The position numbers were made by a program, and so were the translations under genes. This document shows positions 13,003 to 55,818 of a stretch of DNA of 64,000 bases, piece after piece. This DNA comes from Mobula hypostoma (taxonomy: Eukaryota): assembly GCF_963921235.1 (NCBI RefSeq), contig NC_086097.1, forward strand, positions 17,050,001-17,114,000, written 5' to 3'. The notes beneath the pieces are model-generated. The model was not told the origin of the DNA and did no database searches. It saw only the letters and a program-made list of their open reading frames with translations. How positions within the stretch are numbered: position 1 is the first letter of the stretch; every line of letters begins with the position of its first letter.

Positions 13003-13210
13003 GCAGCATGCACAAAGTGCTGGAGAAACTCAGAGAGTCAGGCAGCATTCACAGAGAGGAGTAAACAGTCGACAATTCATCAGAACTGGAACTTGACCTG
13101 AAACGTTGACTATTTATTCTTCTGTATGGACACTGCCTGACTTTCTGAGTTCTTCAACCCTTTTTTGCTTGTTGCTCATGATTTCCATCATCTGCAAAGT
13201 CTCTTGCGTT
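13003..13210. mobile_element. Penelope-derived foldback miniature element
   Basis: AAAGTGCTGGAGAAACTCAG... followed by its reverse complement ...CTGAGTTCTTCA, then ATTTCCATCATCTGCA. Confidence 0.7.
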
Positions 13211-13729
13211 TAAGATTGGGTTCCCTGTTAACATGCATTCCATCAATGGGCGAGGCATGTTCAGAATACCAGCTCCTACAAATTTGGTTTCCCAGTCCAC
13301 CGTCTGCACCATTCTGCAATGCACTTGGGCAAAGGGTCTTTAGGAACTTAACATTTGATTCTTTGCTTTACTCCAACAATACTTTAAGGTCAAGTGTAGC
13401 CCTAATTCATTTGAATGGCATCAACACCCTTAATGGACAGCAAGGTGTGTTTATTACACTTAAATTAATCTTCATGTTTAAAATTAAATTACATAAGTTG
13501 AATGTAATTCTTAAAAAGATTTTTTTCTTAATATTCTCTCCCTTTTCTATAAGTCTCTGGACATTTAATAACAGTAGAAAGGCCTGTTTGAAGGCTGTTA
13601 GGGGGGGATCCCTGGGCAAGGCCTTAGTTTCTGCTGCCTGTAGCCTACTTTGTCCCACACAAAAGTGGTAACAACAAGACTGGAAGGATGGTGGGAAGAA
13701 AATGGATGCCAAAGGCCAAATCCACCTTT

Positions 13730-14100
13730 TGTTTGTTCATTATTTGCCACGTCATATGATGTGGGCGATCATGGTCTTTCCATGACCATGTTTGTTCTTG
13801 GCAAATTTTCTATTGAAGTGGTTTGCCATTGCCTTCTTTTGGGCAGCGTCTTAACAAGATGGGTGACCCCAGCCATTATAAATACTATTCAGAGATTTTC
13901 AGCCTGGCGTCAGTGGTCGCATAACCAGGATATGCACCAGCTGCTCATACGATCAACCACCACCTGCTCTCATGGCTTCATGTGGTCCTGACTGAGGGGC
14001 TAAGCAGATGCTACACCTTGCCCAAGAATGACCTGCAGACTAGTGGAAGGAGGAGAGCCTTACACCTCCTTTGGTAGAGATGTATCTCCACTTTACCATC
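13730..14100 (-). mobile_element. RTE-related non-autonomous repeat, family A (copy 1)
   Basis: Clearly homologous to 22175-22520. Minus strand has GAAGGCAATGGCAAACCACTTC, resembling a Bov-A/RTE motif. Confidence 0.65.
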
Positions 14101-14465
14101 CAAAGATCCACCAGAGGCATCCCAAAAGAAAGAAACCAAAATGTGATAGGAAAGATGTTATTAACATGGAAAGAACACAGAAATTACTTCCAGGGATGTT
14201 GTTAGGATATGACCAACTGAGCTATAAGGAGATGTGGGAAGTGCTGGAGTTTTTATTCCTCAGAGCGTTGGAGACGGAGAGGTGATCTTAGAGAGTTGTA
14301 TAAAATCATGAGGGGTGAATATACTCAGTCTTTTCCCCAAGGCTGGCTAATCAAGAACTGAAAGTTGCAGGTATAAGGTAAGAGGAGAAAGATTTAATAG
14401 GAATGTGAGGTTTTTTCAAACATATAGAGGGTGGTTCATATATGGAATCAGCTGCCAGAAGAAAT
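14100..14465 (+). mobile_element. Old CR1 3' fragment
   Basis: RKDVINMERTQK..LPGM motif; ATATGGAATCAGCTGCCAG. Confidence 0.7.
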
Positions 14466-14965
14466 GGTTCAAAGTTCAAAGTAAATTTGTTATCAAGGTA
14501 TGTATATGTTACCATATACTACGCTGAGATAAATTTTCTTGCAGGCATTTACAGGAATGAAAGGAATAGAGTAGAATTTTTATGAAAATTCTATATATAA
14601 GCAGACACAACTGACGAACAACCAATGTGCAAATAGAGGCAAACCGTGAAAGTAAAAATAATGCTGAATACCTGAGTTGTAAAGAGTCCTGTAGTTCATA
14701 GAATCAATTCAGAGTAGTGAGTGAAGTTATCCACATCGCTTCAGGAGCCTGATGGCTGCAGGGTAACAACTGTTCCTGAACCTGGGTGCTAAGGCTCCTG
14801 CATCTCTTGACCGATGGTAGTATTGAGAGGAGAGCAAGGTCTTTGATGATGGATTTTGTCTTGTACAGTGCATCCAAAGAAGTTCGTCAAAGATTTTGGT
14901 GGTATGCTGGATCTATGCAAACTTCTAAGAAAGTAGAGGCACTGTTGTGCCTTCTTTATAAAGTA
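14466..14965 (-). mobile_element. Rex1/Babar-type LINE 3' fragment
   Basis: (TTCAAAG)n tail on plus; CTGTTCCTGAACCTGG matches the antisense 3' ORF seen in other Rex copies here. Confidence 0.65.
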
Positions 14966-15029
14966 TTTTAAAGGCAGAGGGGATGGAGTATCTTTATGAT
15001 TAACTCATTGTGCTGTACAAATGTGGCAG

Positions 15030-17722
15030 TTCTGTCTCAGTACTGCTCACCCAACCTGGAACATCCAGGGTTAAATGTCGTGCATTTTATCTGCTGAGGG
15101 AGTTTTCTGCCATCATTCTGGTAGCAGCGTACAACCCATCTCAAGCGGGCATCAGGCAGGCACTGGAAGAGCTGATCAACGTAATCTGCAGCCACAAATC
15201 AGCGTACACTGATGCATTCCCTATCATTTTAACCAGACCAGCTCTGAGCAACTACCACCAACATATCACCTGTGGAACCAGAGGAGCCAACCAACTTGAC
15301 CACAGTTAAACCAGCATCAAGAACTCTTACCGCGCTGATCCATGCCCACACTTTTAAGGTCGATCACCTGCCTGTGTTTCTACTCCTGGCACATAGGCAG
15401 AGACTAAAGACCCCAGCGCCAGCGGTGAGGATCAATAGGGTATGGTCAAGGGAGGCAGAGGAGCATTTACAGGACTGCTTTGAGTTGGTGGACTGGACAA
15501 TATTCAGGGATTCATTTCTGAATCGGAATGAATATGTCATATTTGTCGCTGACTTCATCAAGACCCACATGAGTGAGTGTGTGTCTTTGAGAACACATGG
15601 GACTCTGAGACAGTGATCACAGCATTACCAAATGCTGCAGGGATTCACACAAGAGTAGTTTTAACCAAATCAAAAGCTGTGGATGAACCAGGAGATCCTC
15701 AATCTGCTGAGGACTAGATCTGTGTCATTCAAGACCAGTAATCCAGGTACAACCTACAGAAGGCTATTTCAAGGGCAAAAAAAAAAACAACTTTAATTGA
15801 GCTCAGAGACAGAAATGGATGCAAGTCAGATCTGGCAGGGTTTACAGGTCATTACTTCCCACAAATTGAATCCTAATACCATGAATGTCTGTGATGCTTC
15901 ACTCCTAGATTAACTCAGCTTTCTAGATTAGGAAGGGGAGAATAAAACTATACCTGTGCGAATCCTTGCGGCATTTAGTAACCCTGTGATTTCCATCCTG
16001 AAGCTGACATTTGAACATGTTTCAAAAGTGTGAACCCTTGCAAGCTGTCAGACCCTGATGGTGTACATGGTGGGGCTCTTAAAACCTGTGCCAATCAACT
16101 GGTGGGAACGTTTAAAGAGGAGTTTTCAATCTCTCACTGCTGCATTCGGAGGTTCCTACCTGCTTCAAAAGGGTGACAATCATACCAGCGCCCAATAAAA
16201 GCAGGGTGAGCTGACTCAATGACCATCACCCAGTGGCTCTCACATCTACTGTGATGAAGTGCTTTGAGAGGTCATGGCTAGAACCAGCTCCTGCCTCAGC
16301 AGCTCTGCTGCAAATTGCCAATTGCCACAACAAGTCTACAGCAGATGAAATCTCTCCACTCCACCTGGGATCATCTGGACAATAGTAATATCTACGTCAG
16401 GCTGTTTATTGACTACAGCTTAGCATTCAATAAAAGCATACCCTCAATGCTAATCAGCAAGTTCCAAAGTTTGACCCTCTGTATCTCCTTCTGCAACTGG
16501 ATTCTTGACTCACCAAGAGACCACAGTCTGCCTGGATTGGAAATAACAACTCCTCCTCACTGACAACCAATATCCACGCATCTCTGGGGTGTGTGCTTAG
16601 CCCACTGCTCTATTCTCTCTACACCCACTGTTGTGTAGCTAGGCACAGCTTAAATGCTATCCATAAATTTGCCAATGGCATCACTGTTGTTGGCAGAATT
16701 TCAGATGGTGACGAGAAGGCGTACAGGAGCCAGATAGATCAGCTTGCTAAGTGGTGTCACAGCAACAACCTTGCACTCCACGTCAGTAAAACCAAGGGAT
16801 TAATTACGGCAACACACATCAAATGCTGGAGGAACTTAGCAAGCCAGGCAGCATCTATGGGAAGGAGTAAACAAGGAACGTTTTGGGCCCGGATGAAGGA
16901 TCTTGGCCTGAAACGCTGACTATACTTTTTTCCATAGATGCTGCCTGGCCTGCTGAGTTCCTCCAGCATTTTATGTGCATCTCCAGCATCTGCAAATTTT
17001 CTCTTGCTTGTACCCTTGTTTGATTGTGGACTTTTGGAAGCGGAAGTCAAGGGAACACCCACCGGCGATCGCCAAGGGATCAGATGTGGAAAGGGTGAGC
17101 AGATTCAAGTTCATGGGTATCAACATCTCTGAGGTTTAATCCTGGGTCCAACATATTGATGCAATTACAAAGAAGGCACGATAGCGGCTTTATTTCATTA
17201 CGACTTTGAGCAGAATTGCTAGGTCACCAAGGACACGCACAAATTTCTACATATGTACTGTGGAGAGCGTTCTAACTGATTGCATCACATTTTGGTATGG
17301 AGGGGCCACGGCACAGGATCAGAAAAAGCTGCAGAAAGTTGTAAACTCAGCCAGCTCCCTTATGGGTACTAACTTCCCCAGCAAAGCCTCAAAAAGCACC
17401 CATTATTAAGGATCCCCATTCCTAAGACATGCCCTTTTCTCATTGCTATTATTAAGGAGGAGGTACGGGAGATTAAAGACACACACTCACCATTTCAGGA
17501 TCAGCTTCTTCCCCTCTGTATCAGATTTCTGACTAGAAAGTGAACAAATGAACACTACCTCAGTATTTTTTTCTCTCCTGTCACACAACTTATTTAATTT
17601 AACTTTTATAAATTCTTATTGTAAGTTATAGTTTTATTATTATGTGTTGCAATGTACTGCTACCCACAAACCAACAAATTTCACAACATATGCCAGTGAC
17701 ATTAAACTTAATTTTGATTCTG
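15030..17722 (+). mobile_element. Long degenerate Rex1/Babar LINE (APE, RT, 3'UTR)
   Basis: KCRAFYLLREFSAIILVAAY, CGTRGANQLDH, LQDCFELVDW, YVRLFIDYSLAFN, LSPLLYSLYTH, FY.CTVESVLTDCITFWYG; (TTCTGA)-type tail. Confidence 0.9.
16808..17010. mobile_element. Penelope-derived foldback miniature inserted in the Rex1 RT
   Basis: AAATGCTGGAGGAACTTAGCAAGCCAGGCAGCATCTATGG and CCATAGATGCTGCCTGGCCTGCTGAGTTCCTCCAGCATTT are inverted arms around a degenerate GATGA..GAAAC core. Confidence 0.85.
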
Positions 17723-17850
17723 AACATACAACATAGAACAGTATAGCACAGAAACATGTTGTGTTGAACCAAATAAATTGGGAATCAAATGGCCATCTGG
17801 ACTTGTGCCTACACAATGTCCATATCCCTCCATCCATGTGTGTATCTAAA

Positions 17851-20800: not shown

Positions 20801-20900
20801 GGAGACATTATATACTGTAACTCCTATCAAGGTCTTTTTACCCTTGAGGTTTCTTAGCCCTACCCACAACAATTCTATACCTTCCGATCCTATGCCCCTT
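17851..20900 (-). mobile_element. CR1 LINE ORF2 (APE to 3' end), split by a solo LTR
   Basis: Minus ORFs LQKDIDRLGKWAKKWQMEYSV, LKVDKSPGADGLHPRV, YRPVSLTS; (CATAAGAT)n tail; homology resumes after 20756. Confidence 0.9.
20289..20756. mobile_element. Solo LTR (468 bp) with 4-bp TSD TACC
   Basis: TG at 20289, CA at 20755-56; TACC at 20285-88 and 20757-60; interrupts CR1. Confidence 0.8.
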
Positions 20901-20904
20901 AAAA

Positions 20905-22160
20905 GTCCCTAATCTCTCTGCCTCAACCTCAACCCCAGGCAGCACATTGCAGGTGCCCACAAATCTCTGTAAAAAACCCTCAGATCTCCTTTAAAATTAT
21001 GTTCTCTCACATCAAATGCATTTGCTTCTAGTACCCTGTGAAAAAGGCACTGTCTGCTACTCATAATCTGATAGACCTCTATCAGATCTTCCCTCAGCCT
21101 CTGGTGCTCTAGAGAACACAACCCAAGTTTGTCCAATCTCTTATTATAGCAAACGCCCTCTGATCCAGGCAGCATCCTGGTAAACCTCTTCTGCACCCTC
21201 TCCAAAGCCTTGATATCCTTCCTATAATGGGTGACTTGACTAGAGTTTTAGAAAGCTGCACCATAACTTACTGACTTTTGAACTCAGTGCGTGGACTAAT
21301 AAAGGAACGCATGCCGTAAGCCTTCTTAACCACCCTATCGACCTGTGTAGTCACGTTTAGGGAGATCTGAACTGGGACTCCAAGATCCCTCTGCTCATCA
21401 ACACTTTTAAGGATCTTTCCCTTAACAGTATATTGTCCCTTTTCATTTGACCCTACCAGGGTGCAATGCTTCACATTTGTCTCTCTTTGCAACTGATCTA
21501 TATCCTGCCGTATTACTTGCCAGTCACCGACGCTATTCACAAAACCACCAATCTTCATATCATCTGCAAACTTACTAATGCACCCATCTACATTTCCATC
21601 CAGTCATTTATTTACTTCACAAACAGTACAGATCCCTGTGGAACGCCACTAATCACAGACTTCCAGCTAGAATAAGTCCCTTTGACCACCATCGTCTGCC
21701 TTCTATGGCAAGCCAGTTCTGAGTCCAAACGGCAAATTCACCACTGATCCCATGTATCTTAATCTTCTGTATGAGCCTCCCATTAGGGACCTTGTCAAAT
21801 ACCTTTCTAAAATCCATGTAGACAACATCTACAACTCTACCTTCATTAATTACCCTTGTTACCTTGTCAAAAACTCAATAAAGTTAGTAAGACACAACAT
21901 ATCCTGCACAAATCATGCTGTTTTTTCCTAATTAGGTCATAGTTTTCCAAAAGCTCATAAATCCTATGCCTAAGAATTCTTTCCAGTAACTTCCCTACCG
22001 CAGAAATGAGACTCCCCAGTCTATGGTTTCCAGGATTATCCCTGGTTTCCTTCTTGAATAATGGAACAATATTAACTACTTGGCTGTTCTCTGGGCCCTG
22101 GGCTCTGGCTAAAGATGGCACAAAGATATCAGCCAATGCCCCAGCAATCTCTTTTCTCTC
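20905..22160 (-). mobile_element. CR1 LINE RT fragment
   Basis: Minus ORFs MERVQKRFTRMLPG, VDEQRDLGV, NIVPLFKK. Confidence 0.88.
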
Positions 22161-22174
22161 AGTAAACAGGCTTC

Positions 22175-29814: not shown

Positions 29815-30012
29815 GAAAACACACACACGCAAACTCACCAGGTCCACAAATGGAAGCTGGTGTGTGGACGGAGGTCCATGGAGTCCCGATGAAGAGACTC
29901 ACCCCAAAATATCGACTCTTTATTCCTTTTCATCACTGCTGCCTGTCCTGCTGAGTTCCTCCAGTACCACGTATGTGTTACTTTGGACTCTGCAGAATCT
30001 GCTGTGTTTATC
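29815..30012. mobile_element. Degenerate Penelope-derived foldback miniature
   Basis: GAGTCCCGATGAAG...ATCGACTC core followed by CCTGCTGAGTTCCTCCAG. Confidence 0.6.
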
Positions 30013-33252: not shown

Positions 33253-35164
33253 TTGGAATAGAGAGAAGCTGAGCATTCTGTAGCAAAGCTAGCTTTAGTT
33301 TGGATCTGATTTGTGCCCTTTTTCCATTTAATAGATGGAAATGATTTCTACAATAAAAATCTAATTTTAATTTTAAAAAGAGGAAAATGAAAATTGATTC
33401 TGATATTTTAAGTTAATAGCCTACATGCTAAATTGCTTCATAGCTCTGAGATGTCAGCGATGTGATACTAAACCTGATTCTGAGATTGTTCTGTATTTTC
33501 CTGCTCTTAATGGTTATTTTTCTTAATATTGTTTATCAAAATGACTGGTTCGTAAATCCCATTTTGTACTGGCGTGACTCATGTTAACAGTGACCCCATG
33601 AATTTGCATGACCTTTTCATGACGCACAACACAAACTAGGCTTGTTTTCTACATCACTGACTACATTTAATTAGCTGTAAAGTTCTTTGGATGTCCTGAA
33701 GTTGTGAAAGGCAAGGCATTGCTTTCTTGTATTCCTTTGAGTATAGGATATTAATGGATAAACAGAAGAGATTCTGCAGATGCTGGAAGTATTAATGGGT
33801 GACGTGATTGAAGTATTTAAAATCTTGTTTTTTTATCGATAGCAGGAAACCATTTCCTACATTAGGAAAATCAGCATTAAATGGGCATTTTTTTTTCAAA
33901 ATGAGACTAAGGTCCATTTAAGAGAGAAATCAAGAAACACATTTTCAAATAGTGGTGATAGAGTTCCCATGGTGTCTCCCACAAATGACTGCATTTTAAC
34001 AGCTTACTACATTAAGATTGGTAGATTTTGTTAGGTAAGGAATATAAAACTATGTAAGAAAATACCACTGAGGAGGAGGAGGATTTAATGCCAGTATCCA
34101 CTCTTCTGTTTCACTCTTTATTATGTACGTAAATCCTGCCTTTTCAATGCTCTGTTCACAGCTCACAATCTCTTAAGGGGCTTGTAGTTCCATGCTTGAG
34201 TCTTACAACTGCACCAAAGAGATGGGAACCAGCCAGTGCAAGTAATTTTCAAATGTAAACAACTATAAACAAAACAACTCATGTTCAGTGCCTAATTTCA
34301 GAGCTTTAATCATCGGTAAATGGAAAGGTAAAAGTAAGTTAGAGAGATGTCTGGTTGGTGACTAATTTAGTGGATGTAAGTTTTGATTCCTGCCCCCCCG
34401 TTGAGTTCCCTATTTTATTGTTAGGTTGGTGGGGGAAAGCAAGGTCACTGAGAGAAAACAAACTTTCCCAAGGAAGCAAACACAATTTGAAAGGGATTGT
34501 TATCACTACTTCATCTTTTTACATTTCACATGGGAGGAGGTCTCCCACCTATCCAGTTTCCCTTAGGAGGTCCTGAAACCTGAGCAGGTGAAGTTAAATT
34601 GTGGTTTTAACATTGGGGATAAATAGCATTGACACTAAGTTTATTTATGGTAGGCTTAGGACACGACAAAGACCTAATGTGTTTGAATCTGATAGCTCAT
34701 GGTTCACTGGAATTCTTTAAAGGAAATATAATATTTATCGAATTAATAGCACACTGCTATAGGTGTAATGAAAATTAGTAAAGGAAGCAGAAAGTGGTAA
34801 TGAGAAAATTTCTCCACTGGATTCATAACATGGCAATTGAAATTAACTCTTGAGATATTATGAAATTTTCTAATCATACAAAGCTCCATGTTTGATTGAC
34901 ATATGGAGAAAATAATGACTATAAAAAACAGGAAACTTTTAAGTAAATATATTGAGGAAAACCAGACAGGTTTTAATTAACATAACTGCGAAGTAATGTA
35001 CAGTATATGGGAGCAGGCCATTGTCTAAATCAATCCTGCAAACCTAAAAACTTCCAGATCCATTGATTCATTAGCAAAAACAAAATTATCAGGAAAGTAT
35101 AACCTCCCAGAATGATTTTAAACATCTCAAGGTGACAAATGGGAAGATAAAGTGCTCATTCACT

Positions 35165-37196: not shown

Positions 37197-38189
37197 AATT
37201 ATAACTTTCTGTAACAGCTACTTGAAAAACAAACCAGAACTGCTGAGAGACTGAGTGAGGGAATTAGCACTGTGTGAAAGGCTTCCAAATAACTGAGTTC
37301 CATATTGATAAAAGAACATTCAATCCTTTATTATGAAAAATCTAGCAAAGATGAACGATCAAAAATAGCAATACTGAAGTTAGCAATATTTACAAAGTTT
37401 GCAGAATTAGCAATATAAGCAAAATAAGTACAATTAGCGTTCAACAAAAAAATTCATCCCTGCTTAGTCTATCTCTAACAATACCAACGGTATAAAGGGT
37501 GAATACGTGACTATACTCATTTACTTCTACCATGTCGTGTCTACTACATGACAAATTGCTGTAACCCAAAATAAAACACGAAACACAAAGTATAATACAT
37601 ACAGACAGAAAATAGATAGATACATTTTCCATAGTTAAGGAGAACAGATTTGTGCAATCTGTCCAATGTATCATCTCATCAAGACCTTTTGTGAATTCTG
37701 GGTTGAATATTCTTGTACTCAGTTGTTTCATTTACCTTGTTCTTTGTCTTCCTCCAGATATGATAGTATCATGGTTAAACTTGGCAACATAGAAACATGG
37801 GAAATGGAAGCAGTAATAAGCCCACCCTGCATTCAATATTATTATGATTGATCATCTGTCTCAATGACCCTTTCTCTTCCCAGATCCCTTAATGCCGTTT
37901 GCATCTTAGAAGTTATCCATCTCCACCTTACAACTACTCCAAAAGATAGCATTTGCTAAGAGAATTTGCAGTTACTCCACTCTCTGTGTAAAGATACTTT
38001 TCCTCATCACAGTCCTAAATTTCTTGCCCTATGGCCCAACACCAAGTTGTCCTGTCCAAGATCGGAAGAAGCCGCAGAAGATCGTGAACACAACGTAGCA
38101 CATCACACAAACCAATCTTCCGTCCTTGGAACACACATCAAGGTTGCTGGTGAATGCAGCAGGCCAGGCAGCATCTGTGGGAAGAGGTG

Positions 38190-38227
38190 CAGTCGACGTT
38201 TCAGGCTGAGACCCTTCGTCAGGACTA
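38190..38227 (-). ncRNA. Minimal hammerhead ribozyme motif (mirror copy)
   Basis: Reverse complement of the 40900 motif; loop II is CTCA. Confidence 0.72.
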
Positions 38228-40279
38228 ACTGAAGGAAGAGTGAGTAAGGGATTTGAAAGTTGGAGGGGGAGGGGGAGATCCAAAATGATAGGAGAAGACA
38301 GGAGGGGGAGGGATAGAGCCAAGAGCTGGACAGGTGATAGGCAAAAGAGGATACGAGAGGATCATGGGACAGGAGGTCCGGGAAGAAAGACAAGCGGGGG
38401 GGACCCCAAAGGATGGGCAAGAGGTATATTCAGAGGGACAGAGGGAGAAAAAGGAGAGTGAGAGAAAGAATGTGTGCATAAAAATAAGTAACAGATGGGG
38501 TACGAGGGGGAGGTGGGGCCTTAGCGGAAGAGAAGTCAATGTTCATGTCATCAGGTTGGAGGCTACCCAGACGGAATATAAGGTGTTGTTCCTCCAACCT
38601 GAGTGTGGCTTCATCTTTACAGTAGAGGAGGCCGTGGATAGACATGTCAGAATGGGAATGGGATGTGGAATTAAAATGTGTGGCCACTGGGAGATCCTGC
38701 TTTCTCTGGCGGACAGAGCGTAGATGTTCAGCAAAGTGGTCTCCCAGTCTGCGTCGGGTCTCGCCAATATATAAAAGGCCACATCGGGAGCCCCAGACGC
38801 AGTATATCACCCCAGTCGACTCACAGGTGAAGTGTTGCCTCACCTGGAAGGACTGTTTGTGGCCCTGAATGGTGGTAAGGGAGGAAGTGTAAGGGCATGT
38901 GTAGTACTTGTTCTGCTTACACGGATAAGTGCCAGGAGGGAGATCAGTGGGGTGGGATGGGGGGAACGAATGGACAAGGGAGTCGCGTAGGGAGCGATCC
39001 CTGCGGAATGCAGGGTGGGGGAGGGAAAGATGTGCTTAGTGGTGGGATCCCGTTGGAGGTGGCGGAAGTTATGGAGAATAATATGTTGGACCCGGAGGCT
39101 GGTGGGGTGGTAGGTGAGGACCAGGGGAACCCTATTCCGAGTGGGGTGGCGGGAGGATGGAGTGAGAGCAGATGTACGTGAAATGGGGGAGATGCGTTTA
39201 AGAGCAGAGTAGATAGTGGAGGAAGGGAAGCCCCTTTCTTTAAAAAAGGAAGACATCTCCCTCGTCCTAGAATGAAAAGCCTCATCCTGAGAGCAGATGC
39301 GGTGGAGACAGAGGAATTGCGAGAAGGGGATGGCGTTTTTGCAAGAGACAGGGTGAGAAGAGGAATAGTCCAGTTAGCTGTGAGAGTCAGTAGGCTTATA
39401 GTAGACATCAGTGGATAAGCTGTCTCCAGAGACAGAGACAGAAAGATCTAGAAAGGGGAGGGAGGTGTCGGAAATGGACCAGGTAAACTTGAGGGCAGGG
39501 TGAAAGTTGGAGGCAAAGTTAATAAAGTCAACGAGTTCTGCATGCGTGCAGGAAGCAGCGCCAATGCAGTCGTCGATGTAGCGAAGGAAAAGTGGGGGAC
39601 AGATACCAGAATAGGCACGGAACATAGATTGTTCCACAAACCCAACAAAACGGCAGGCATAGCTAGGACCCATACGGGTGCCCATAGCTACACCTTTAGT
39701 TTGGAGGAAGTGGGAGGAGACAAAGGAGAAATTATTAAGAGTAAGGACTAATTCCGCTAGACGGAGCAGAGTGGTGGTAGAGGGGAACTGATTAGGTCAA
39801 ACTGATTAGTCCTTACTCTTAATAACTTCTCTCAGGATGAGGCTTTTCATTCTAGGACGAGGGAGATGTCTTCCTTTTTTAAAGAAAGGGGCTTCCCTTC
39901 CTCCACTATCAACTCTGCTCTTAAATGCATCTCCCCCATTTCACGTACATCTGCTCTCACTCCATCCTCCCGCCACCCCACTCGGAATAGGGTTCCCCTG
40001 GTCCTCACCTACCACCCCACCAGCCTCTGGGTCCAACATATTATTCTCCGTAACTTCCGCCACCTCCAACGGGATCCCACCACTAAGCATATCTTTCCCT
40101 CCCCCCCCCCCGCATTCCGCAGGGATCGCTCCCTATGCAACTCCCTTGTCCATTCGTCCCCCCCATCCCTCCCCACTGATCTCCCTCCTGGCACTTATCC
40201 GTGTAAGCAGAACAAGTGCTACACATGCCCTTACACTTCCTCCCTTACCACCATTCAGGGCCCCAAATAGTCCTTCCAG

Positions 40280-40606
40280 GTGAGGCAACACTTCACCTGT
40301 GAGTCGACTGGAGTGATATACTGCGTCCGGTGCTCCCGATGTGGCCTTTTATATATTGGCGAGACCCGACGCAGACTGGGAGACCGCTTTGCTGAACATC
40401 TACGCTCTGTCCGCCAGAGAAAGCAGGATCTCCCAGTGGCCACACATTTTAATTCCACATCCCATTCCCATTCTGACATGTGTATCCACAGCCTCCTCTA
40501 CTGTAAAGATGAAGCCACACTCAGGTTGGAGGAACAACACCTTATATTCCGTCTGGGTAGCCTCCAACCTGATGGCATGAACATCGACTTCTCTAACTTC
40601 CGCTAA
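40280..40606 (+). pseudogene. Penelope GIY-YIG endonuclease domain (upstream in-frame TAG at 40268)
   Basis: FTCESTGVIYCVRCSRCGLLYIGETRRRLGDRFAEH...VATHFN...EQHLIFRLGSLQPDGMN; preceded by C-x4-C-x2-C (PCKQNKCYTC). Confidence 0.9.
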
Positions 40607-40899
40607 TGCCCCACCTCCCCCTCGTACCCCATCTGTTACTTATTTTTATGCACACATTCTTTCTCTCACTCTCCTTTTTCTCCCTCTGTCCCTCTGAATA
40701 TACCTCTTGCCCATCCTCTGGGTTCCCCCCCCCCCTGTCTTTCTTCCCAGACCTCCTGTCCCATGATCCTCTCGTATCCCTTTTGCCTATCACCTGTCCA
40801 GCTCTTGGCTCTATCCCTCCCCCTCCTGTCTTCTCCTATCATTTTGCATCTCCCCCTCCCCCTCCAACTTTCAAATCCCTTACTCACTCTTCCTTCAGT

Positions 40900-40937
40900 T
40901 AGTCCTGACGAAGGGTCTCGGCCTGAAACGTCGACTG
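40900..40937 (+). ncRNA. Minimal type I hammerhead ribozyme motif (Penelope-associated)
   Basis: TAGTC-CTGACGA-A-GGGT/CTCG/GCCT-GAAA-CG-TC-GACTG: stem I, conserved core, stem II, palindromic ACGT stem III, predicted GUC cleavage after 40932. Confidence 0.75.
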
Positions 40938-41439
40938 CACCTCTTCCTACAGATCTTGCTTGGCCTGCTGCATTCACCAGCAACTTTGATGTGTGTTGCT
41001 TGAATTTCCAGCATCTGCAGAATTCCTGTTGCTTCCGTCCTTGGACTCACTTTATACCGCACACTGTCGGAGAAGTGCTGCCAGGATAATCAAGGACACG
41101 ACCCACCCAGCCAACACACTTTTCGTCCCTCTTCCCTCCAGGAGAAGGCTCAGGAGCTTGAAGACTGGTACGGCCAAATTTGGGAACAGCTTCTTTCCAA
41201 CTGTGCTAAGACTGCTGAGCGGATCCTGACCCGGATCTGGGCTGTACCCTCCAAATATCTGGAGGTGCACCTCAGTTTTTTTGCACTACCTTACTTTCCA
41301 TTTTTCTATTTTCTATTTATGATTTATAATTTAAATTTTTATTATTTACTATTGAGGGAGCGGGAAGCGCAGAATCAAATATCGCTATGATGATTGTACG
41401 TTCTAGTATCAATTATTTGGCGACAATAAAGTATGCATT

Positions 41440-41920
41440 CCTGGTCTTATCATGGCCAAAAATGCATTGAATCCTCAAGTCTGGTTTCACCAAGGCTCTA
41501 TTTCACTGTAGAAAGTAATCTTTGCTTCTGCATGCAAAACCTGTTGTGATGAAGACCTACATGCCATTTGCCTTCTTAATCCAATAACGTATATACTTGC
41601 AGTGACGTGTAAAAGGACACCCAGGTTTCAACACATGGCAGTCTAATGCTATTTAAATAATATATTACTTTTCCATTCTTCTTACTAAGGTAAATAACCT
41701 CACATTTATCTGCATCATACTTCCTCTGCCATGCTTTTGCCCATGCTTTCCGTTTATCCAAATTGCCTGGAAGCCTCTTTGCATCTTCCTCAGAATTCAA
41801 TATTCAGATTAATGACGTTACTGGTTTAAATAATTGACATGTTGTGAAGCTGTGAATAGCTGAGGCCCAAGCACTATTTCTGGTGGCACCTCCCTAGTTA
41901 CTGAATGAAATCCTGAGCGA
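41440..41920 (-). mobile_element. Old CR1 RT fragment
   Basis: Minus ORF WAKAWQRKYDADKCEVIYL. Confidence 0.7.
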
Positions 41921-43644
41921 CCGACAAATTGCAGGTGGAGCTTTGCAGGTCACATAAAATGCTGGGGGACTGATCTGCTGCGTTCCTCCAGCATTTTCCA
42001 TGTTGCTCGGAAATGTATGAAGCTGGTATCAGATTCAAAATTCAAGATTCAAGATTCAGAATTACCCAATTATTTCTTCTTTTACTTTCTTATTTGGCTT
42101 TAATGCATGGTTGTGGGAGAAATGTACTCCATGCCAATGTATTGCCTCCCCCCCCCAACTGCCATACCATGCATTAACTCACTGGGATGGCATCTTAAAG
42201 GTCTAAGCTACTGATTGAGGAATGTGAGTTCAAATCCTGTTTCCCATCTTCCAAAAAAATTACATTTAGATAGCTAAATAAACCTGAAATTTATGAACGC
42301 AAGAGATTATGTAGATGACGAAAATTCAGAGCAGCCCTCAAAATGCAGGAGGAACTCAGCAGGTCAAGTGACATCACACACAAAGTGCTGGAGGACTGAC
42401 CTGCTGAGTTCCTCCAGCATTTTGCACGTTGCTATGATACGTTTGAAGCTGGTATCAGATTCAAGATTCAAGATTCAAGATTCAATATTGTTTAATGTCA
42501 TTTGAAGTAAACAAGTGTAACGGAGAATGAAATAATCTGGATCTGAAGCAGCAGGAAAAAAAAACACAGTAAGATGAGGAACACAATAGTAAAAGAATAC
42601 AAGATATAAATACGTAGTAACACTCACAACATGTTTGCGTTTTTAAAACAAACTGCTGGAATTTGTCATATAAATCATATATGATGGAGAAAAGGAAATC
42701 TTTATCTGGTCTAGCATACATCCTGTGAATAATCAGAGTATGTTAGAAAATAACCCTATGATGTTATTAATATCAGACCCATTTCTAGTAAATGTTATGA
42801 CTGGAATTATAGCTATATCTTCCTATAATTGTCTGTTACAGAAAAATTTAAAGTGAATTAGACATTTCATCTGATCTCTGCATAACTGATTTAAGAATAT
42901 CCAAAGTACATATTAAGCATTGTGAAGTCTATTTTCAATAACTTCTGTCATTGAAATACATGTAGTTCTGATATTAAAACGTCTTTTCAATAACAGAACC
43001 AGGAAATAAATGATCACTATTTTTTCCTACATGAGAACAAGTAACATATGTAAAATGAATTGGTTTAGCATGCACCGAGGTTAGGAGAGATGTGATATCA
43101 ATGCAAGTCTTTCTTTTGCACTCAACACTTTAAGGAATGTGAACTTACCTTAAAAAAATAATAGCCCATGGCCAAAGGTCCTATTTGGTCATTGGAAAAT
43201 AACATGAAAACCAGAATCTATGCTGTGTTAGTGGATTTCAGGGCAGTGGTTGGCCTTAACACTAGAGGTCAATGGATAAAACGTGGAGGGTTTCCGCAGG
43301 TCAGCAACATCTCGTGACCCTGGAGCTAAATATACACATGCCTGTACCCTCAGGAAGAGAAAGAAAATCAAAGGCCAGAATTAATTCCAAGGACAGTTGA
43401 CTAGAAATAAAATAGGTTATTTCAACATGCTATTGACTACTGAGGAGACTACAGGAAAATATCATAGATAGTTCACGTTCCTCAATTAAAAGCATGTTGA
43501 GTTGGTGAGACAGAAAGGCAGATAATGATTCTGGATCTTGGAGTATTGAGTTATGAAAAGAGATTCACAGAGGCACATACATTTTCAATGGTGGAATGAA
43601 GGTATCATGAATCAAACCATTAAAATGATACATATTTAAATGGG

Positions 43645-43957
43645 AATACAAGAGATTCTGCAGATGCTGGAAATCTTGAGCAACATTCATAAAATGCTGG
43701 AAGAACTCAGTACATTTTAGGTATATATATGAATTGTGTCTTATAGATTTTCAGTTATGTATTGTATTGAACTGTCGCTGCAAACCATTACAACTCACGA
43801 CATATGCCAATGATATTAAATCTGATTCTGATTCAAGTAAGCCAGCATCTATGGAGGGAAATGATGACTGATGAAGGGTCTCGACCTGAAGCATTGACTG
43901 TTTATTCCTCTCCATAGATGTTGCCTAACTTGCTGATTTCCTCTGTGTGTGTTGCTC
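43645..43957. mobile_element. Penelope-derived foldback miniature interrupted by a Rex 3'UTR (~43710-43835)
   Basis: GCAGATGCTGGAAATC..; CATCTATGGAGGGAA / TTCCTCTCCATAGATG arms around CTGATGAAGGGTCTCGACCTGAA. Confidence 0.75.
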
Positions 43958-44496: not shown

Positions 44497-45075
44497 ATAG
44501 GTTGGTATGATGGCATAGTGATTAGTGGAATGATTTAGAATGGCAGTGAACACATACACACAAAGTGCTGGAGGAACTCAGCAGGCCAGGCAGCATCTAT
44601 GGAAAGAGTATAGTCAACGTTTCAGGCTAAATGATGAGCACTGATGAAGAGTCTCAGCCTGAAATGTCAATTGTAATCTTTTCCGTAGATACTGTCTGTC
44701 CTGCTGAGTTCTTCCAGCATTTTGTCTGTGTTGCTTGGATTTCCAGCATCTACTGATTTTCTCTTGTTTATGAATAGAATGGCAGCGATTGTGATTGGGG
44801 TTCAAATCTGACCGCTGTTGGTAAGGAGTTTGTATGTTCTCCTCAGTGACTGCATGGATTGCTCCCAGGTTCTCCAGTTTCCTCCCACATTCCAAAGACA
44901 TATGGTTAGGGTTAGTAAATTGTGTGCATGTTATGTTGGTATGGAAGCGTGGTACCCCCAACACTTCCTCAAACTGCGTTGCTCTTTGACGCAAATGACG
45001 GACATTTTCAATGACGGACTATGTTCCAACGTTTCATTGTGTATATGACAAATAAAGCTAATCCTTAATCTTTAA
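44497..45075 (+). mobile_element. V-domain tRNA-derived SINE split by a foldback insertion
   Basis: A-box-like TGGCATAGTG, B-box-like GGTTCAAATC, V core GGAGTTTGTATGTTCTCC..GTTTCCTCCCACATTCCAAAGAC; AATAAA and TAATCT tail. Confidence 0.8.
44550..44774. mobile_element. Penelope-derived foldback miniature with 14-bp TSD
   Basis: ~75-bp inverted arms around CTGATGAAGAGTCTC; TAGAATGGCAG(T/C)GA at 44536-49 and 44775-88. Confidence 0.88.
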
Positions 45076-45539
45076 CTACAGGTAATATGTTATCGAGGTC
45101 TGGGGACTGGCTGATAGACAGAGAACAGTACTATTTGCAGGATGCTTATTCACCTTGTCCTACTCATTCTTCCTCCAGGCCTATCTTTAGTTATTCACTA
45201 ATGTCTTTACCTCCTTTTTCCGACCAGCTCCACAACCTGCTTTGCTATTTAATGAATCCTGCCCTCCACCCTGCCATTGATCTTTGTGTTCTCTCTGTCC
45301 AACCCCCTTTCTCTTCAAGTTAAAACTTGCTTTTACTTCTTAATTCCCAATTCTGATGTAATGTCATTGGCTGAAATCCTTAACAAATACTGAAAAAGCA
45401 AGAAGAAGATAAAGGTAATTCAATCTGAAACTTCAGATGTTTCTCTTTCCACAGATGCTCTGTGACCTGCTGAATGGCTCCATCATTTTCTGCTTTTTGT
45501 TTCAGATTTCTAGCATCTGAATTTTAAAAAAATCAATCA

Positions 45540-46074
45540 GAGAGTGGTAGTAGATGGTTCCTTCTCTGACTGGAGACCTGTGACTAATGGAATGCTGCAA
45601 GGATTGCTGATGGGTCCATTGTTGTTTGTCATATATATCAACAACTTGGATGATAATGTGACAAACTGGATCAGAAAATTTGCATATGGCACCAAAACTG
45701 GGGGAGTAGAAGACAAGGATGGACTGAATTGATTGGGTAATGCAAGCAGACTTTTTCCACTGGGATTGGGTGGGACTACGACTAGAGGTCATGGGTTACG
45801 GGCAAAAGGCAAAAAGTCCAAGGGGAACATGAGGGGAAATGTCTTCACTCAGCAGGTTGTGAGAGTGTGGAATGAGCTGCCAGCGCAAGTGGTGAGTGTG
45901 ATTTTGATTTCAACGTTCAAGAGGAATTTGGATAGGTACATGGATTGGAGGAGTATGTAGGGCTATGCTCCGAGTGCACGTCATGGGTCTAGGAAGTTTA
46001 AATAGTTTGACATGGACTAGATGGGCCGAAGGGCATGTTTCTCTGCTGTACTTTGCCATGACTCTATAACTCTA
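45540..46074 (+). mobile_element. Internally deleted CR1 fragment
   Basis: SDWRPVTNGMLQG..GPLLFVIYINNLD; TRGHG..FTQQVVRVWNELP; ACTCTA tail. Confidence 0.85.
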
Positions 46075-46778
46075 ACCTGAACCGTTAACTCTGTCTCTTC
46101 TCAGAACCTGCCTATCCAATTGAGTATTTCCGGCTTATTTTACGTTTCCAGCATTGGCAATTGTCTGCATTTCCTAGGGGATTTGGGGACCATATGTGAC
46201 ACATCTAAGTTTGTTGATGGGACAAAATGAGCTGGAAAAGTGTTTGCATGAGAACTTTGTAAAGGATTGACTGGGTTGATTGGATAAGAAAATGGAAAAT
46301 GGCATATAAGTGTGTGGCTGTGTGCAATCGTTCATTAAGTGAGGAGAAAGGAGAACAGAATAGTTTCTTATGAGAGTGAGTGAAACAAATTGAAAAGTAA
46401 CTAGTATGGAGGCCTTTATTGAAAGGGGGTAGAAGTATAAACATAAGTAAAGCTTCCTGTAATTACATAAGCATTTGTGAGACCACACCTGGAAACATAC
46501 GTACAGTATTGACTTATTCGGAACAAGAGGGCTGCAGGTGAATGGCTAAGGATTTCCGGAGCGAAGGCAGTTTCCCTACTTGGGATAAAAGAGGGGCAAG
46601 ACTGCGCAGGCACGTGACATCAGCCAGTGGAGCGGAAAAGTTGAAAAAGAAGACTGCCATATCCAGTGGGCAGCGGAGTGTGTGGTGGCAGAGTGATAGG
46701 GCTTTTGCTCAACGGGCTTAGGTGGTACCAGGATGAGGCGAGGTAGGTTTACCTGTGTTAATTGCAGAAAGGAAGTAG

Positions 46779-51706: not shown

Positions 51707-53344
51707 TACCCCATGCACGGCTTATTGAGAAAGTAAGGAGGCATGGGATCCAAGGGAACATTGCTTTGTGGATCCAGAACTGGCTTGCCCACAGAAGGCA
51801 AAGAGTGGGTCCAGAAGGGTCATTCTGCATGGAGTAGTATGCCTCACGGATCTGTTCTGGGACACCTACTCTTTGTGATTTTTATAAGTGACTTGAATGA
51901 GGAAGTGGAGGGATGGGTTAGTAAGTTTGCTGATGACACAAAGGTTGGAGGTGTTGTGGTTAGTGTGGAGGGCTGTCAGAGGTTACAGCGGGACATTGAT
52001 AGGATGCAAAACTGGGCTGATAAGTGGCAGATGGAGTTCAACCCAGGTAAGTGTGAAGTGGTTCATTTTGGTAGTTCAAATATGATGGCAGAATATAGTA
52101 TTAATGGTAAGACTCTTGGCAGTGTGGAGAATCAGAGGGATCTTGGGGTCCGAGTCCATAGGACACTCAAAGCAGCTGTGCAGGTTGACTCTGTGGTTAA
52201 GAAGGCATATGGTGTACTAGCCTTCTTCAACTGTGGGATTGAGTTCAAGAGCCAAGAGATAATATTACAGCTATATAGGACCCAGGTCAGATCCCATTTG
52301 GAGTACTATGCTCAGTTCTGGTCACCTCACTACAGGAAGGACGTGGAAACCATAGAAAAGGTGCAGAGAAGATTTACAAGGATGTTGCCTGGAATGGGGA
52401 GCATGCCTTATGAAAACAGGTTGAGTGAACTCGGCCTTTTCTCCTTGCAACGACAGAGGATGAGAGGTGACCTGATAGAGGTGTATAAGATGATGAGAGG
52501 CATTGATCGTGTGGATAGTCAGAGGCTTTTTCACAGGGCTGAAATGGTTGCCACAAGAGGACACAGGTTTAAGGCGCTGGGGAGCAGGTACAGAGGAAAT
52601 GTCAGGGGTAAGTTTTTTTACTCAGAGAGTGGTGAGTGCGTGGAATGGGCTGCCAGCAATGGTGGTGGAGGTGGATATGATAGGGTCTTTTAAGAGACTT
52701 TTGGATAGGTACATGGAGCTTAGAAAACTAGAGGGCTATGGGTAAGCGTAGTAATTTCTAAGGTAGGGACATGTTCGGCACGACTTTGTGGGCTGAAGGG
52801 CCTGTATTGTGCTGTGGGTTTTCTATGTTTCTATGTTTCTATGCTTTATGTTATAATTCCCTGAGAGGAAATGATGCCCAGAGTAAAAGATGTTCTGTAA
52901 GGAGATATTAACTAGAACATATATTTTGTATTTTACAGAATGAAAGATGACCACTTTAAAATGTATAAAACTTTTCAAGAATTTAACTTCAAAGCTCAGG
53001 GTTTAAAGTACATTTATTATCAAAGTATGTATACAACCTTGAGTTTTGTCTCCTTACAGGCAGCCACAAAACAAGAAACCCAAAAGAACACAGTAAAAAA
53101 AAAGACCATCAAGCACCCAATGACCCAATGCGCAGGAAGAGAAAAATAACAGTGCAAACAATAAATGTAAACAAATACCACTCACTTGGTAGATGTCGAG
53201 AGACGATTTCTTCAAGCTGCAGAGTTCAGAGCGAGGAGTCAGGACACTTAGGAGACGAGATGAAATTTCTTCCTTCAGAAAGCTGCGATCCTTTGGTGTT
53301 TTCCTCAAAGAATAATGGATGATCTCCCATTGACTGAGAATGAC

Positions 53345-53790
53345 AGTCAAGTCAAGTTTATTGTCACTTAACTATATACTACATATATAATGTATGTTAC
53401 CATATAATGCATGTAGAAACAAGACAACATTTCTCCGAACCAGGGTGCAAAGCACATAACACACATAACACATTATAACTTATGAAAATAAGGATAAAAT
53501 CTACAGATGAACCATGCATAAATGTACAAAGTAAAGTGCATGAATTAAATATTGTAAACTATGGAACAGATTAACCAGTGACACTTCAAATCCGATGTGA
53601 CAGGGAGTTCAGAGCCTGATGCCCTGAGAGGAAAGAATTGTTTCCCATCCTGACCATTCTTGTCCTTATGCCTCGGAGTCTCCTACCTGATAGTAAAAAG
53701 TCAAAGAGGATGTTCGATGGATTGGTAGGATCATTAATAATACCAAGGACCATGCGTACACAGCAATCCTGATAAATGTTGTCTGCTCCA
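53345..53790 (-). mobile_element. Rex1/Babar 3' fragment
   Basis: GTCAAGTCAAGTTTATT tail; antisense coding remnant TGTTTCCCATCCTGACC. Confidence 0.6.
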
Positions 53791-54359
53791 TACCAGATGG
53801 AGAGGCTGATAGGTCTTTAAAATCAAGAAAAATGAGGAAACAGGACTGGGATGGGATGGGGGAGGAAAGGTGGCACCTGAAGTTGAAGTAGAAGTTTAAC
53901 CCATGATATAATTACTGAAGTAGGCTCGAGAAGCAGAATAGTGGAATGCTGTTCATATTTCAGCTGGTGTTCTTACAATTCTTCTGTGCCGAGTATGTAG
54001 TCCAGTCTCCTCCTGTTTAATTAGTTAAATGCACATATCGGCTGCTACCAAAATTCACCTATTTTTGAATTCCTATCACATAAGGGTGAATGTAGTTAAG
54101 CATTACCATTGTGTCCTTTGTTTTTCAGGATGGCCCAGCGGGTGATAAGTATTTAAAACATGTAATGACATTTATAAACCTTCACAGTATCTAATCTTAA
54201 TACTAGCCTTAATGAGAAACACTCTTATTTACTGTTCAAAGGAACAGGGTTTTAAGTCGATGCAGATGTTTTAAAATTGTTTGTGTGCTTCCTCTCACCA
54301 TGCTCCTGTTCGGACCAGACAAGCTCCAGGTTTCATGATCCCATAGTTTCCCTTGTGAA

Positions 54360-54704
54360 ATAGCCTGAGCTGATTGGGGATAGTAGTTGCCTGGTTTATA
54401 ATGAGCTATGAAGAAAGCAAATTGCATTATTCCAATGGGGCGGGTCTGTGGGTGACACAGGCTATTCATCAGTGCACTGCGTGCGTTGCGTTGAAGGGGG
54501 GAGATGTCTACATCTGCTGCTGTGTGAGTTGTATCTCCCTGTGCCAGCTCCTGCACCTACTGTGCATTCACATGAGGGAATGCGTGTCTAGACTTTGCGT
54601 TCCCTGTTGTGCACACACATTATTGCACACTGCAATCAGTGTGATTTGTCTGTGATTGAGTGTGAGCCCCTGTATGCTAACAGCCCAACCAGATGTGGGT
54701 GAGT
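54360..54704 (+). promoter_or_regulatory. Candidate host promoter and short first exon with splice donor
   Basis: TE-free, relatively GC-richer patch. CTGATTGG (~54370), CCAAT (54432) next to GGGGCGGG (54437). ATG at 54674 gives MLTAQPDV-G, then consensus donor GG|GTGAGT at 54698/54699. Confidence 0.45.
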
Positions 54705-55317
54705 TAACAAATTTTTATTCAGCTCACCCTGGATGAAACCATTAAGTTTGCCACATCTGCTGCTGAATGGCTCCTTTATGTCCAAATTGTTGCAGGTCAT
54801 TATGTGTAAGTCACACACTAACTTCCTCCTCCAATAACACGGTGGCAGAATATTCCATGGTGAGACTATTGACTTTTGCAATTTCTCTGGGAAAATGGAC
54901 ACAATTCCAAAATATGATTCCCAAAGTACTGGTAAATGTCTAGGGAAATTCACTGACACTATGTAACAGATGAAGAATTTGCCTTATTTTGTCATCACAG
55001 CCCAGAGGGCTGGGTCATAAACAGATAAAATTTTAAAAAAACTTTGATGTCAGATCATGGTAAAAATATTAGACTCCAATGTGATAAGAATATTGCTTAG
55101 TTTATTGTCACCATAATGGGTAGTCATGTTCAAAGTTCTGTAAGTTAGAACTGGCAGCACGATAATTGGGGAGTTGGTGTTTGCATAACCTTGAACTTTT
55201 TCTCAGATTGTACCACAGAAAATATTCCAGTACATTCAACCCCATTCTGGTAACATCAGTTATTTTTTTCCCTATATAGACAGACTGAAGAGCAATCTAA
55301 TAGTTTGTGAGTCTTTA

Positions 55318-55592
55318 CAGTGTAATATTAATGTCACATTAAATCATTGATCAAGAGACACGAGTTCAATTCCCACAGTAGCAATTGGAGATCTGAAATT
55401 CAAGTATTTATATAAATCTGGATTTAAAAAGCTGGGATCAGTAGCAATGACTGTTAAACCCCTAGGATGTCATAAAAAAAACCCATCTGGTTCACAAAAG
55501 ACCTAATTGAATTAAGGGTATATGTAACCCCTGATCACATCAATGTGTCTTACTCTTAGCTGCCTTTTCAGTTATGGATCATTTTGGGGCAG
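55318..55592 (+). mobile_element. Old tRNA-derived SINE (shark-type); related fragments near 11.7, 30.8 and 42.2 kb
   Basis: GAGTTCAATTCC B-box; AAAAACCCATCTGGTTCAC motif. Confidence 0.55.
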
Positions 55593-55818
55593 ATATAAAT
55601 GCTGGAGGAACTTGGCAGCCCAGGCAGCATCTACAGAGGGAAATAAACAGTCAATGTTTCAGGCCAAGACCCTTTATCATGTGCCCTGATGAAGGACCTT
55701 GGCCTGAGCCATCGACTGTTTCATTACCTCGAAAGATGCTGTCTGACCTATCAAGTTCATCCAGCATTTTGTGCATCTTGCTCAAGATTTCCAGCATCTG
55801 CAGAATCTTTTGAGTCTC
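55593..55818. mobile_element. Penelope-derived foldback miniature
   Basis: AAATGCTGGAGGAACTTGG / CAAGTTCATCCAGCATTT arms around CCTGATGAAGGACCTTGGCCTGA. Confidence 0.8.

Follow-up and report, generated by a model that had tools for sequence, protein, structure and literature searches.

The short foldback structures in the window (the whole stretch of ray DNA analysed here, 64,000 nt) are, by their sequence, the terminal ~100–135 nt of a ray Neptune-type Penelope-like element (PLE), joined head to head. Very probably each is an independent insertion, now dead and 5'-truncated to an extreme degree, from an older PLE subfamily. They are of a known kind, the layout having already been described for PLEs.

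Identity of the foldback stubs

The stubs and the PLE pieces compared with them, with the labels used for them here, are as follows.

13001..13211, no strand assigned: foldback stub 13003, assessed by shuffle score and fold z
16809..17012, no strand assigned: foldback stub 16808, within a LINE-like fragment
43645..43955, no strand assigned: foldback stub 43645, with the reverse asymmetry
44550..44772, no strand assigned: foldback stub 44550, assessed by shuffle score and fold z
55597..55820, no strand assigned: foldback stub 55593, near-symmetric about a point just upstream of CTGATGA
29878..30010, plus strand: single sense arm 29815, from hammerhead region to tail
57296..57774, plus strand: direct 5'-truncated PLE copy with EN end, 3' UTR, hammerhead region and short end

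A sequence-only reading had proposed six foldback copies, each consisting of the Penelope terminal segment plus its inverted copy. This holds for five of them (13003, 16808, 43645, 44550 and 55593), in which the inverted-arm score is matched by 0 of 200 shuffles on either strand. The sixth, 29815, has a sense arm only; no significant inverted arm was detected at 29815–29877, the inverted score being equalled or exceeded in 12 of 200 shuffles. Fold z is −8.4 for 13003, −17.3 for 16808, −13.2 for 44550 and −9.9 for 55593, with 43645 left out of this set because another repeat fragment interrupts it. In the Rfam search 13003 gave a sub-threshold match to MIR2118.

The arms of the stubs align to the ends of 38131–41031 and 57296–57774. 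Mean arm identity is 0.65 to the left arm of the large 2.9-kb element and 0.77 to the copy at 57.3–57.8 kb, which is of the subfamily nearest to the stubs and in which no inverted arm was found. By this comparison the stubs belong to an older sister subfamily, not to that of the 2.9-kb element, and their earlier description as miniatures of the large Penelope does not fit. An RT fragment is 89–92% identical to Mobula and Hypanus proteins, and the RT homologues carry RVT_1 and GIY-YIG. The stubs make up the majority of PLE ends within the window, where insert sizes form a continuum from a 31-bp tail-only insert up to 2.9 kb.

The large element

38131..41031, no strand assigned: large PLE insertion made of a head-to-head pair of 5'-truncated copies
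40271..40606, plus strand: GIY-YIG endonuclease end of the ORF (Pfam PF01541, E 2e-5)
40900..40937, plus strand: predicted minimal type I hammerhead motif, comprising helix I, CTGACGA (40905–40911), stem II and GAAACGTC

The two copies are 96.3% identical over 1173 bp. The left is ~490 nt longer inside and has the short end, and the right bears a 34-nt tail. At their junction 10 nt are duplicated, and the joint also contains 27 nt of templated insert and microhomology. A perfect 14-bp target duplication flanks the insertion (38117–38130 / 41032–41045). Differences between the arms number 17 nonsynonymous and 3 synonymous, with CpG decay of 6 and 6; the two arms appear to have been identical when inserted, as a single template or two matching ones would equally allow. 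The ORF, broken by frameshift/stop, has a CX4CxxC linker motif just upstream of GIY-YIG. A CX2-5CxxC linker in this position plus CCHH is given as defining the Neptune and Nematis clades (PMC8557442), and the element is of Neptune/Nematis type by this motif, which does not separate Neptune from Nematis.

Outer ends and target duplications

7932..8070, plus strand: sense arm with tail, 7937, with a 9-nt inverted piece only, at the 5' junction
33759..33789, minus strand: tail-only insert, 31 bp, with a 9-bp duplication
44536..44549 (plus strand) and 44775–44788: left and right target duplication of 44550, 14 bp, one mismatch

The outer ends of the foldbacks use the same two places as non-inverted copies, namely the short end (as in 57774) and the tail end (as in 29815 and 7937, and likewise in the tail-only insert 33759). 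The tail, found on either arm among the foldbacks, is ~34–38 nt long in four of the five. The asymmetry reported earlier between a short end and such a tail is present in these four; the left arm of 55593 ends ~10 nt internal to the short end. Among contigs from public runs that match the PLE terminus, some run on into the tail and others into a mixed AT-rich flank. The defined priming site that had been suspected behind the fixed arm end was a correct suggestion, though already published: in vitro, two internal RT start sites delimit the 30–40-bp PLE tail (PMC11167929).

Target duplications were found at five inserts, with lengths of 8, 9, 9, 14 and 14 bp, variable and neither TA nor fixed. 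Besides that of the large element they comprise those of 7937 (8 bp, 7924–7931 / 8071–8078; null 9/1000), the tail-only insert (33749–33757 / 33790–33798; null 2/1000), 44550 (11 exact bases; null 0/300 and 1/1000) and 55593, where the initial 9 nt of the left arm repeat directly after the right end (55821–55829; null 1/300) and double as microhomology with the element. The duplication of 44550 thus has the 14-bp length of the large element's, as had been noticed, with one mismatch where the latter is perfect. Duplications of DNA-transposon type (TA, or a fixed 8 or 9 bp) were looked for and not seen, the lengths varying over 8–14 bp; together with the PLE terminal sequence, the variable lengths and absence of TA bear out the retrotransposition origin already suggested. 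No duplication was detected at the other nine PLE pieces tested, including 13003, 16808, 43645, 42295, 41906 and 29815, and empty-site reconstruction from repeats in the window gave nothing usable. By eye, a degenerate 10-bp duplication is conceivable at 16808; it is not significant.

Inner ends and the hammerhead

42295..42433, no strand assigned: hammerhead-less foldback 42295, antisense arm with tail, ~22-nt piece and sense arm

The hammerhead motif was defined following PMC4209133, and the predicted cut in the large element would fall after 40932. The complete minimal pattern occurs in both arms of the large element only (0 of 11 mini or stub arms tested), and the Rfam search gave no hammerhead match. 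Inner ends flank stem II on either side in 14 of 17 cases. The inversion had been placed at or next to the hammerhead core; 42295 and 41906, however, invert ~45–55 nt downstream of CTGATGA and lack the hammerhead, while the left arm of 43645 ends ~35 nt downstream of CTGATGA, and ‘hammerhead-centred’ fails as a general rule. Hammerhead cleavage was considered as the source of the inner ends and rejected, since 0 of 17 lie at the predicted cut.

The individual joints are diverse. In 13003 the antisense left arm, with the short end, reaches ~8 nt upstream of CTGATGA, without stem II/GAAAC, and the sense right arm begins within stem II and bears the tail. The left arm of 16808, also with the short end, stops in stem II; its right arm begins just upstream of a mutated CTGATGA and has the tail, the junction lying on GGCC-type microhomology. 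The short left arm of 44550 ends in stem II and is followed by ~11 nt of filler and a right arm running from CTGATGA through the tail. In 43645 the left arm, antisense and tail-bearing, is broken at ~43713–43830 by the end of another repeat, and its inner end lies ~8 nt 3' of the predicted cut; the sense right arm contains CTGATGA and has the short end. In 42295 the second antisense piece, of ~22 nt, restarts at the short end and is followed by a sense arm with a short end. This foldback and 41906–42008 have junction and right flank in common, at 78% identity, and we read them as a local duplication because the right flank, not just the junction, is shared.

Junctions and arm comparisons

That central junctions differ between copies, as first noticed, was confirmed for all named foldbacks, and junctions are unique except for the 41906/42295 pair; they are blurred because the arms are 18–29% diverged, and the sample is small (five named foldbacks and two or three more). 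Identity is 0.77 between an element's own arms, 0.71–0.75 across elements and 0.75 between left arms. At the scale of the window there is one arm-diagnostic column among four elements, and the left arms do not form a lineage. The right arm of 16808 is 94% identical to the left arm of 44550 and 82% to its own left arm, and a 2-nt indel that distinguishes its two arms separates other copies too; this discordance suggests two templates. For 13003, 43645 and the large element alike, the extra inner sequence goes with the short end and the tail sits on the other arm; hence the second arm cannot have been copied from the first cDNA.

Origin of the inverted arms

These structures are probably best explained by separate priming of each arm from staggered target nicks, an early stop and end-joining of the cDNAs. 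The PLE protein would nick both target strands, 8–14 nt apart, and each free 3' end would prime reverse transcription at one internal start site (short or tail end). Both cDNAs would end early, mostly either side of hammerhead stem II, and would be joined head to head via microhomology or filler. What is seen here is that the arms are PLE ends, that duplications vary in length and junctions are unique, that either arm can carry the tail, and that sizes form a continuum. Two-strand nicking with extension and the two start sites are borrowed by analogy from in vitro work on Poseidon, another clade, in which the PAc protein, a predicted dimer, is described as nicking and extending both strands, with RT starting at two internal sites, one at each boundary of the tail, and with hammerhead cleavage not needed (PMC11167929). 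That there were two separate priming events, and why the cDNAs stop at the hammerhead, we infer. Some observations sit less comfortably with separate priming: the sign of two templates comes from one element, 16808; own-arm identity slightly exceeds cross-element identity; the 9-nt snapback of 7937 is better explained by fold-back or templated filler; and the in vitro data are from a Poseidon element, the element here being Neptune-type.

The same insertions could have gained their inverted arm by self-priming, with an antisense transcript or the end of the cDNA folding back on itself and the endonuclease setting the ends afterwards. We regard this as unlikely. It was proposed for Adineta Penelope from palindromes at inverted junctions (PMC3846280), and the tail has been ascribed to EN resolution (PMC8557442), although it was later mapped to RT start sites (PMC11167929). 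Fold-back could take place at hammerhead stems and GGCC palindromes, and 7937 and the near-symmetric centre of 55593 fit, but the arms of 16808 are discordant and the would-be copy arm bears the tail in 13003, 43645 and the large element. For these three the tail pattern excludes simple cDNA snapback but is compatible with an antisense-template version with EN-cut ends. Recombination between direct pLTRs in an [inverted pLTR][pLTR]-ORF-[pLTR+tail] arrangement, dropping the ORF and leaving a foldback with its duplication, would give the identical final structure; PLEs typically have this arrangement, and recombination or deletion has been invoked for solo pLTRs (PMC3846280). Nevertheless, such an origin is rather improbable, as it requires many full-length precursors, of which the window contains none; even the large element consists of two truncated copies head to head, and the duplications around tail-only and single-arm stubs show that short products arise at integration. 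Homology of ~100 bp is, moreover, short for frequent ectopic recombination.

Similar sizes (200–225 bp), the way inner ends cluster at the hammerhead, the very large number of matching contigs and the junction shared by 41906 and 42295 would all suit a non-autonomous hammerhead hairpin family (retro-MITE or retrozyme-like), multiplied as whole copies from one or a few master loci. This seems quite improbable, given that the 41906/42295 pair also shares its flank, as expected of local duplication, while the other junctions all differ and the tail occurs on either arm. Left arms resemble one another no more than arms of one element do, with the single diagnostic column noted above; among the 15 joints listed, of at least 940, one is a strand switch, at one or two contigs per run; hammerhead-less and tail-only inserts exist; and retrozymes are head-to-tail tandems. 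Of the two alternatives offered by the sequence-only reading, repeated truncation-with-inversion is thus retained and the non-autonomous family, with its differing junctions and variable tail side, is not. A DNA-transposon MITE mobilised by a transposase can hardly be entertained: it accounts for hairpin shape and size only, whereas the duplications are neither TA nor fixed-length (8–14 bp), the ends are asymmetric and the arms are a PLE terminus.

Comparison with known systems

EN+ PLE insertions in which a 5'-truncated copy lies inverted next to the element, with a 30–40-bp tail at one end, have been described (PMC8557442, PMC3846280, PMC2377424). The stubs resemble those insertions in the head-to-head inverted copy, the optional tail at one end, the palindromic or microhomology junctions and the variable 8–14-bp duplications (8–10 bp in Adineta); they differ from the insertions described there in that both copies are cut back to ~100–135 nt, leaving no ORF. 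The sequence-only reading took them for a poorly described system, which they are not, because the tail start sites are published (PMC11167929) and an inverted 5'-truncated neighbour with a one-sided tail is the usual arrangement of PLEs (PMC8557442, PMC3846280). The literature searched gave no description in which ORF-less stubs this short form the dominant class of insertion.

As in the Poseidon element of Anolis (PAc), two fixed ends lie one tail-length apart downstream of a minimal hammerhead, and the cleavage site is not an end; unlike PAc as reported, the ray element has the CX2-5CxxC linker of Neptune/Nematis type (PMC11167929). The PAc ORF starts in the hammerhead (PMC11167929); the ray element gave no convincing sign of such an ORF, 0 of 120 homologous proteins convincingly matching the terminal region and the ray proteins being fragments. 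The motif is of the same type as metazoan PLE minimal hammerheads, with a palindromic ACGU replacing helix III. Most of the PLE motifs reported there are dispersed, from truncated PLEs, with opposite-strand pairs ~100–700 bp apart (PMC4209133); ray pairs are closer (0–20 bp), with the whole core usually in only one arm. Non-LTR retrozymes are likewise short, non-coding and PLE-derived with a type I hammerhead, but are described as head-to-tail tandem units with a hammerhead in each (PMC7229834; bioRxiv 10.64898/2026.07.22.740005), whereas the ray stubs are single head-to-head pairs with decayed cores, none of the 11 arms keeping the full motif.

Abundance and significance

Contigs matching a 601-bp stretch numbered 180,595 of 29.8 million in one run (X1) and 160,347 of 22.2 million in another (X5). 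Depth along the stretch was 1–2e7 in terminal bins and 1e5–1e6 in 3' UTR and EN bins, ratios that are not copy numbers because they are confounded by mismatches of the window copy and by subfamily-specific UTRs. Pattern scans gave 0 matches in viral contigs and 0 in prokaryote genomes; protein-based locus searches and a PDB search also gave 0. Metagenome contigs gave 0 and then four short matches (L001–L004), rejected with weak profile scores as looking like chance or unrelated.

More tentatively, the stubs may record two-RNA, two-nick integration by a PLE dimer with hammerhead-limited RT and joining. RT would mostly start at the 5'-proximal start-site copy on the element's transcript and run off or stall at the uncleaved hammerhead, and hammerhead stems and palindromes would let two same-polarity cDNAs anneal. 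If true, inverted ends, tail and the excess of ~100-nt stubs would be explained by one scheme, in which the hammerhead would halt RT and join the cDNAs through its structure instead of cutting. Given the very many ray loci, this scheme would be testable from sequence alone.

In annotation, hairpins of this sort will be mistaken for MITEs or microRNA precursors, as the MIR2118 match of 13003 illustrates. Taken as an element, the PLE is unremarkable; what makes it useful is the large natural record of integration that it provides. The mechanism forming PLE inverted ends has been stated to be undefined (PMC8557442). Ray genomes contain very many such ends, and arm subfamily, tail side and junction position could discriminate two-nick priming from self-priming.

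Foldback copies of the PLE terminus

Arms of the Penelope-like element (PLE) terminus were detected with a profile of 12 window arms and by alignments against shuffled controls. The sequence-only reading had listed six short hairpin copies (13003, 16808, 29815, 43645, 44550 and 55593) as foldbacks; an inverted arm is found in five, but not at 29815, where the score was reached in 12 of 200 shuffles. The asymmetry it described, one arm stopping at a short outer end and the other carrying a 30-40-bp tail, holds for four of the five foldbacks but not for 55593, whose left arm ends 10 nt further in. Further features are as follows.

7932-8070: arm with 9-nt snapback (7937)
33759-33789: 31-bp insert made up of the tail alone, flanked by a 9-bp duplication
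41906 and 42295: foldbacks without hammerhead
45421-45519 and 46074-46159: single PLE terminal arms, older, more diverged, of a further subfamily
56017: single arm
57296-57774: direct truncated PLE copy (terminal arm, 57672)
59628-60125: PLE fragment with EN end and 3' UTR, breaking off within the hammerhead
40938-40955, 44672-44690, 45436-45458 and 57715-57732: splice-site-like tract

The large element (38131-41031) lies in animal DNA rich in repeats, LINE-type RT fragments among them. It is a head-to-head pair of 5'-truncated copies of one element (96.3% identity across 1173 bp) flanked by a perfect 14-bp duplication. It encodes a GIY-YIG domain, and its RT motifs sit in the longer left copy; the RT fragment shares 92% identity with Mobula hypostoma proteins, 89% with those of Hypanus sabinus and 72-76% with those of sharks, which makes a ray the most likely host. 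A CX4CxxC linker is present, a type given in the account of PMC8557442 as a mark of Neptune/Nematis that is missing in Penelope/Poseidon. Past the stop and 3' UTR lies a hammerhead that fits the minimal type I definition of PMC4209133, with its cut predicted after 40932. The left copy has the short end and the right 34 bases more. At the junction (39783-39830), a 10-nt duplication, a 27-nt templated insert and microhomology match expectation for microhomology-mediated end joining. Differences between the arms look neutral from their 17 nonsynonymous and 3 synonymous substitutions and CpG decay of 6 and 6.

The short copies had been regarded as mirroring this element, a view not borne out by mean identities of 0.65 to it versus 0.77 to the copy at 57296-57774. 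The full hammerhead pattern is confined to the two large arms, being absent from all 11 short-copy arms tested. In the left arm of 13003 (13070-13085), stem II and GAAAC are missing between CTGATGAA and GTCGAC, possibly through an RT jump over the hairpin or a later deletion.

Target duplications and junctions

Judged against random position pairs, significant duplications flank 44550 (14 bp with one mismatch, matching the large element in length as had been reported), 55593 (9 bp, overlapping the arm), 7937 (8 bp), 33759 and the large element; none was found at 13003, 16808, 29815, 41906, 42295, 43645, 57672, 45421, 46074 or 56017. A DNA MITE is excluded because the duplications vary in length and are not TA. 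A separate hairpin of about 60 bp at 4245-4311, unrelated to PLEs and with TA on both flanks, is presumably akin to a Tc1-type DNA MITE.

Central junctions do differ between copies, all being distinct except those of 41906 and 42295, which share junction and flank and are read as one local duplication. The arm with the hammerhead core carries the tail in 16808 and 44550 and the short end in 43645 and 13003. Arm identities among four elements are 0.75 left-left, 0.70 right-right, 0.77 within an element and 0.71 crosswise, with one arm-diagnostic column; the closest pair is 44550-left and 16808-right (0.94). Public contigs aligned on 57250-57850 numbered 180,595 of 29.8 million records in one run (X1) and 160,347 of 22.2 million in another (X5), and their loose ends past the short end run into either the tail or mixed AT-rich flank. 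Among 15 joints listed of at least 940, one is a strand switch (1-2 contigs per run) and five are backward joints of 37-55 nt, that is, restarts at the short end as in 42295. The contig data, weak evidence at the genome-wide scale, give no sign of a master junction.

Inner ends and the hammerhead

Seventeen inner ends were positioned by eye on a ruler. The set excludes the two large arms and 57672, all three of which continue upstream, as well as the tail-only insert, 41906 (a duplicate) and the 9-nt snapback of 7937. Of the seventeen, eight lie at CTGATGA or up to 8 nt upstream, six in the loop or 3' strand of stem II and three further 3'. Tested against uniformly placed ends, the best 10-nt window has P = 0.01 and a pair of windows 0 of 2000, a post hoc comparison in which paired arms are non-independent and three ends are weak-alignment edges. 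The clustering described in the sequence-only reading (14 of 17 in two groups) is thus real in this sample, if post hoc, but 'hammerhead-centred' does not hold for every copy: 42295 and 41906 are foldbacks without hammerhead. Hammerhead cleavage as the maker of the inner ends is rejected, with 0 of 17 at the predicted cut.

About 21 nt 3' of that cut, all subfamilies have a pyrimidine tract ending in CAYAG and followed by ATG, resembling a 3' splice site. The left arm of 42295 ends there, and a joint from 57774 to 57731, with the most contigs among the joints listed (17 and 13), is compatible with it. The hammerhead may lie within an intron. For D. virilis, PMC4209133 and PMC2377424 describe a start within the pLTR and an intron ending at helix I; the tail-only insert recalls the 34-bp repeat of D. 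virilis Penelope described in PMC2377424.

Integration

PMC11167929 shows for one Poseidon protein that both target strands are nicked and extended, that RT starts at two internal sites whose spacing equals the 30-40-bp tail and that hammerhead cleavage is unnecessary; a dimer is predicted. Were this scheme to carry over across clades to the short copies, as we infer, staggered nicks would give the target duplication, each nick would prime one cDNA from either start site, and both cDNAs would halt early and then be end-joined. Simple snapback of the first cDNA is excluded for the large element, 43645 and 13003 because the would-be copy has a tail absent from its template. Self-priming on an antisense template, with ends set by the endonuclease, is possible on the account in PMC3846280, and 7937 does resemble a true snapback. 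The discordant arms of 16808 hint, in one case, at two templates. The early stop of the cDNAs at the hammerhead may reflect stem II stalling, annealing via local palindromes, or run-off at the end of a transcript starting nearby.

An inverted truncated copy with a one-sided tail is a typical PLE layout in the descriptions of PMC8557442, PMC3846280 and PMC8969392, and truncated PLEs are recorded in PMC4209133 as leaving dispersed minimal hammerheads, with pairs about 100-700 bp apart on opposite strands. Retrozymes, unlike the short copies, are head-to-tail tandems as presented in PMC7229834 and bioRxiv 10.64898/2026.07.22.740005. Our search of the open literature turned up neither a description of ORF-less foldback stubs in rays nor a paper on twin priming in PLEs. 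The foldback stubs are real, abundant and of an already described PLE type, and their value is as a record of PLE integration.
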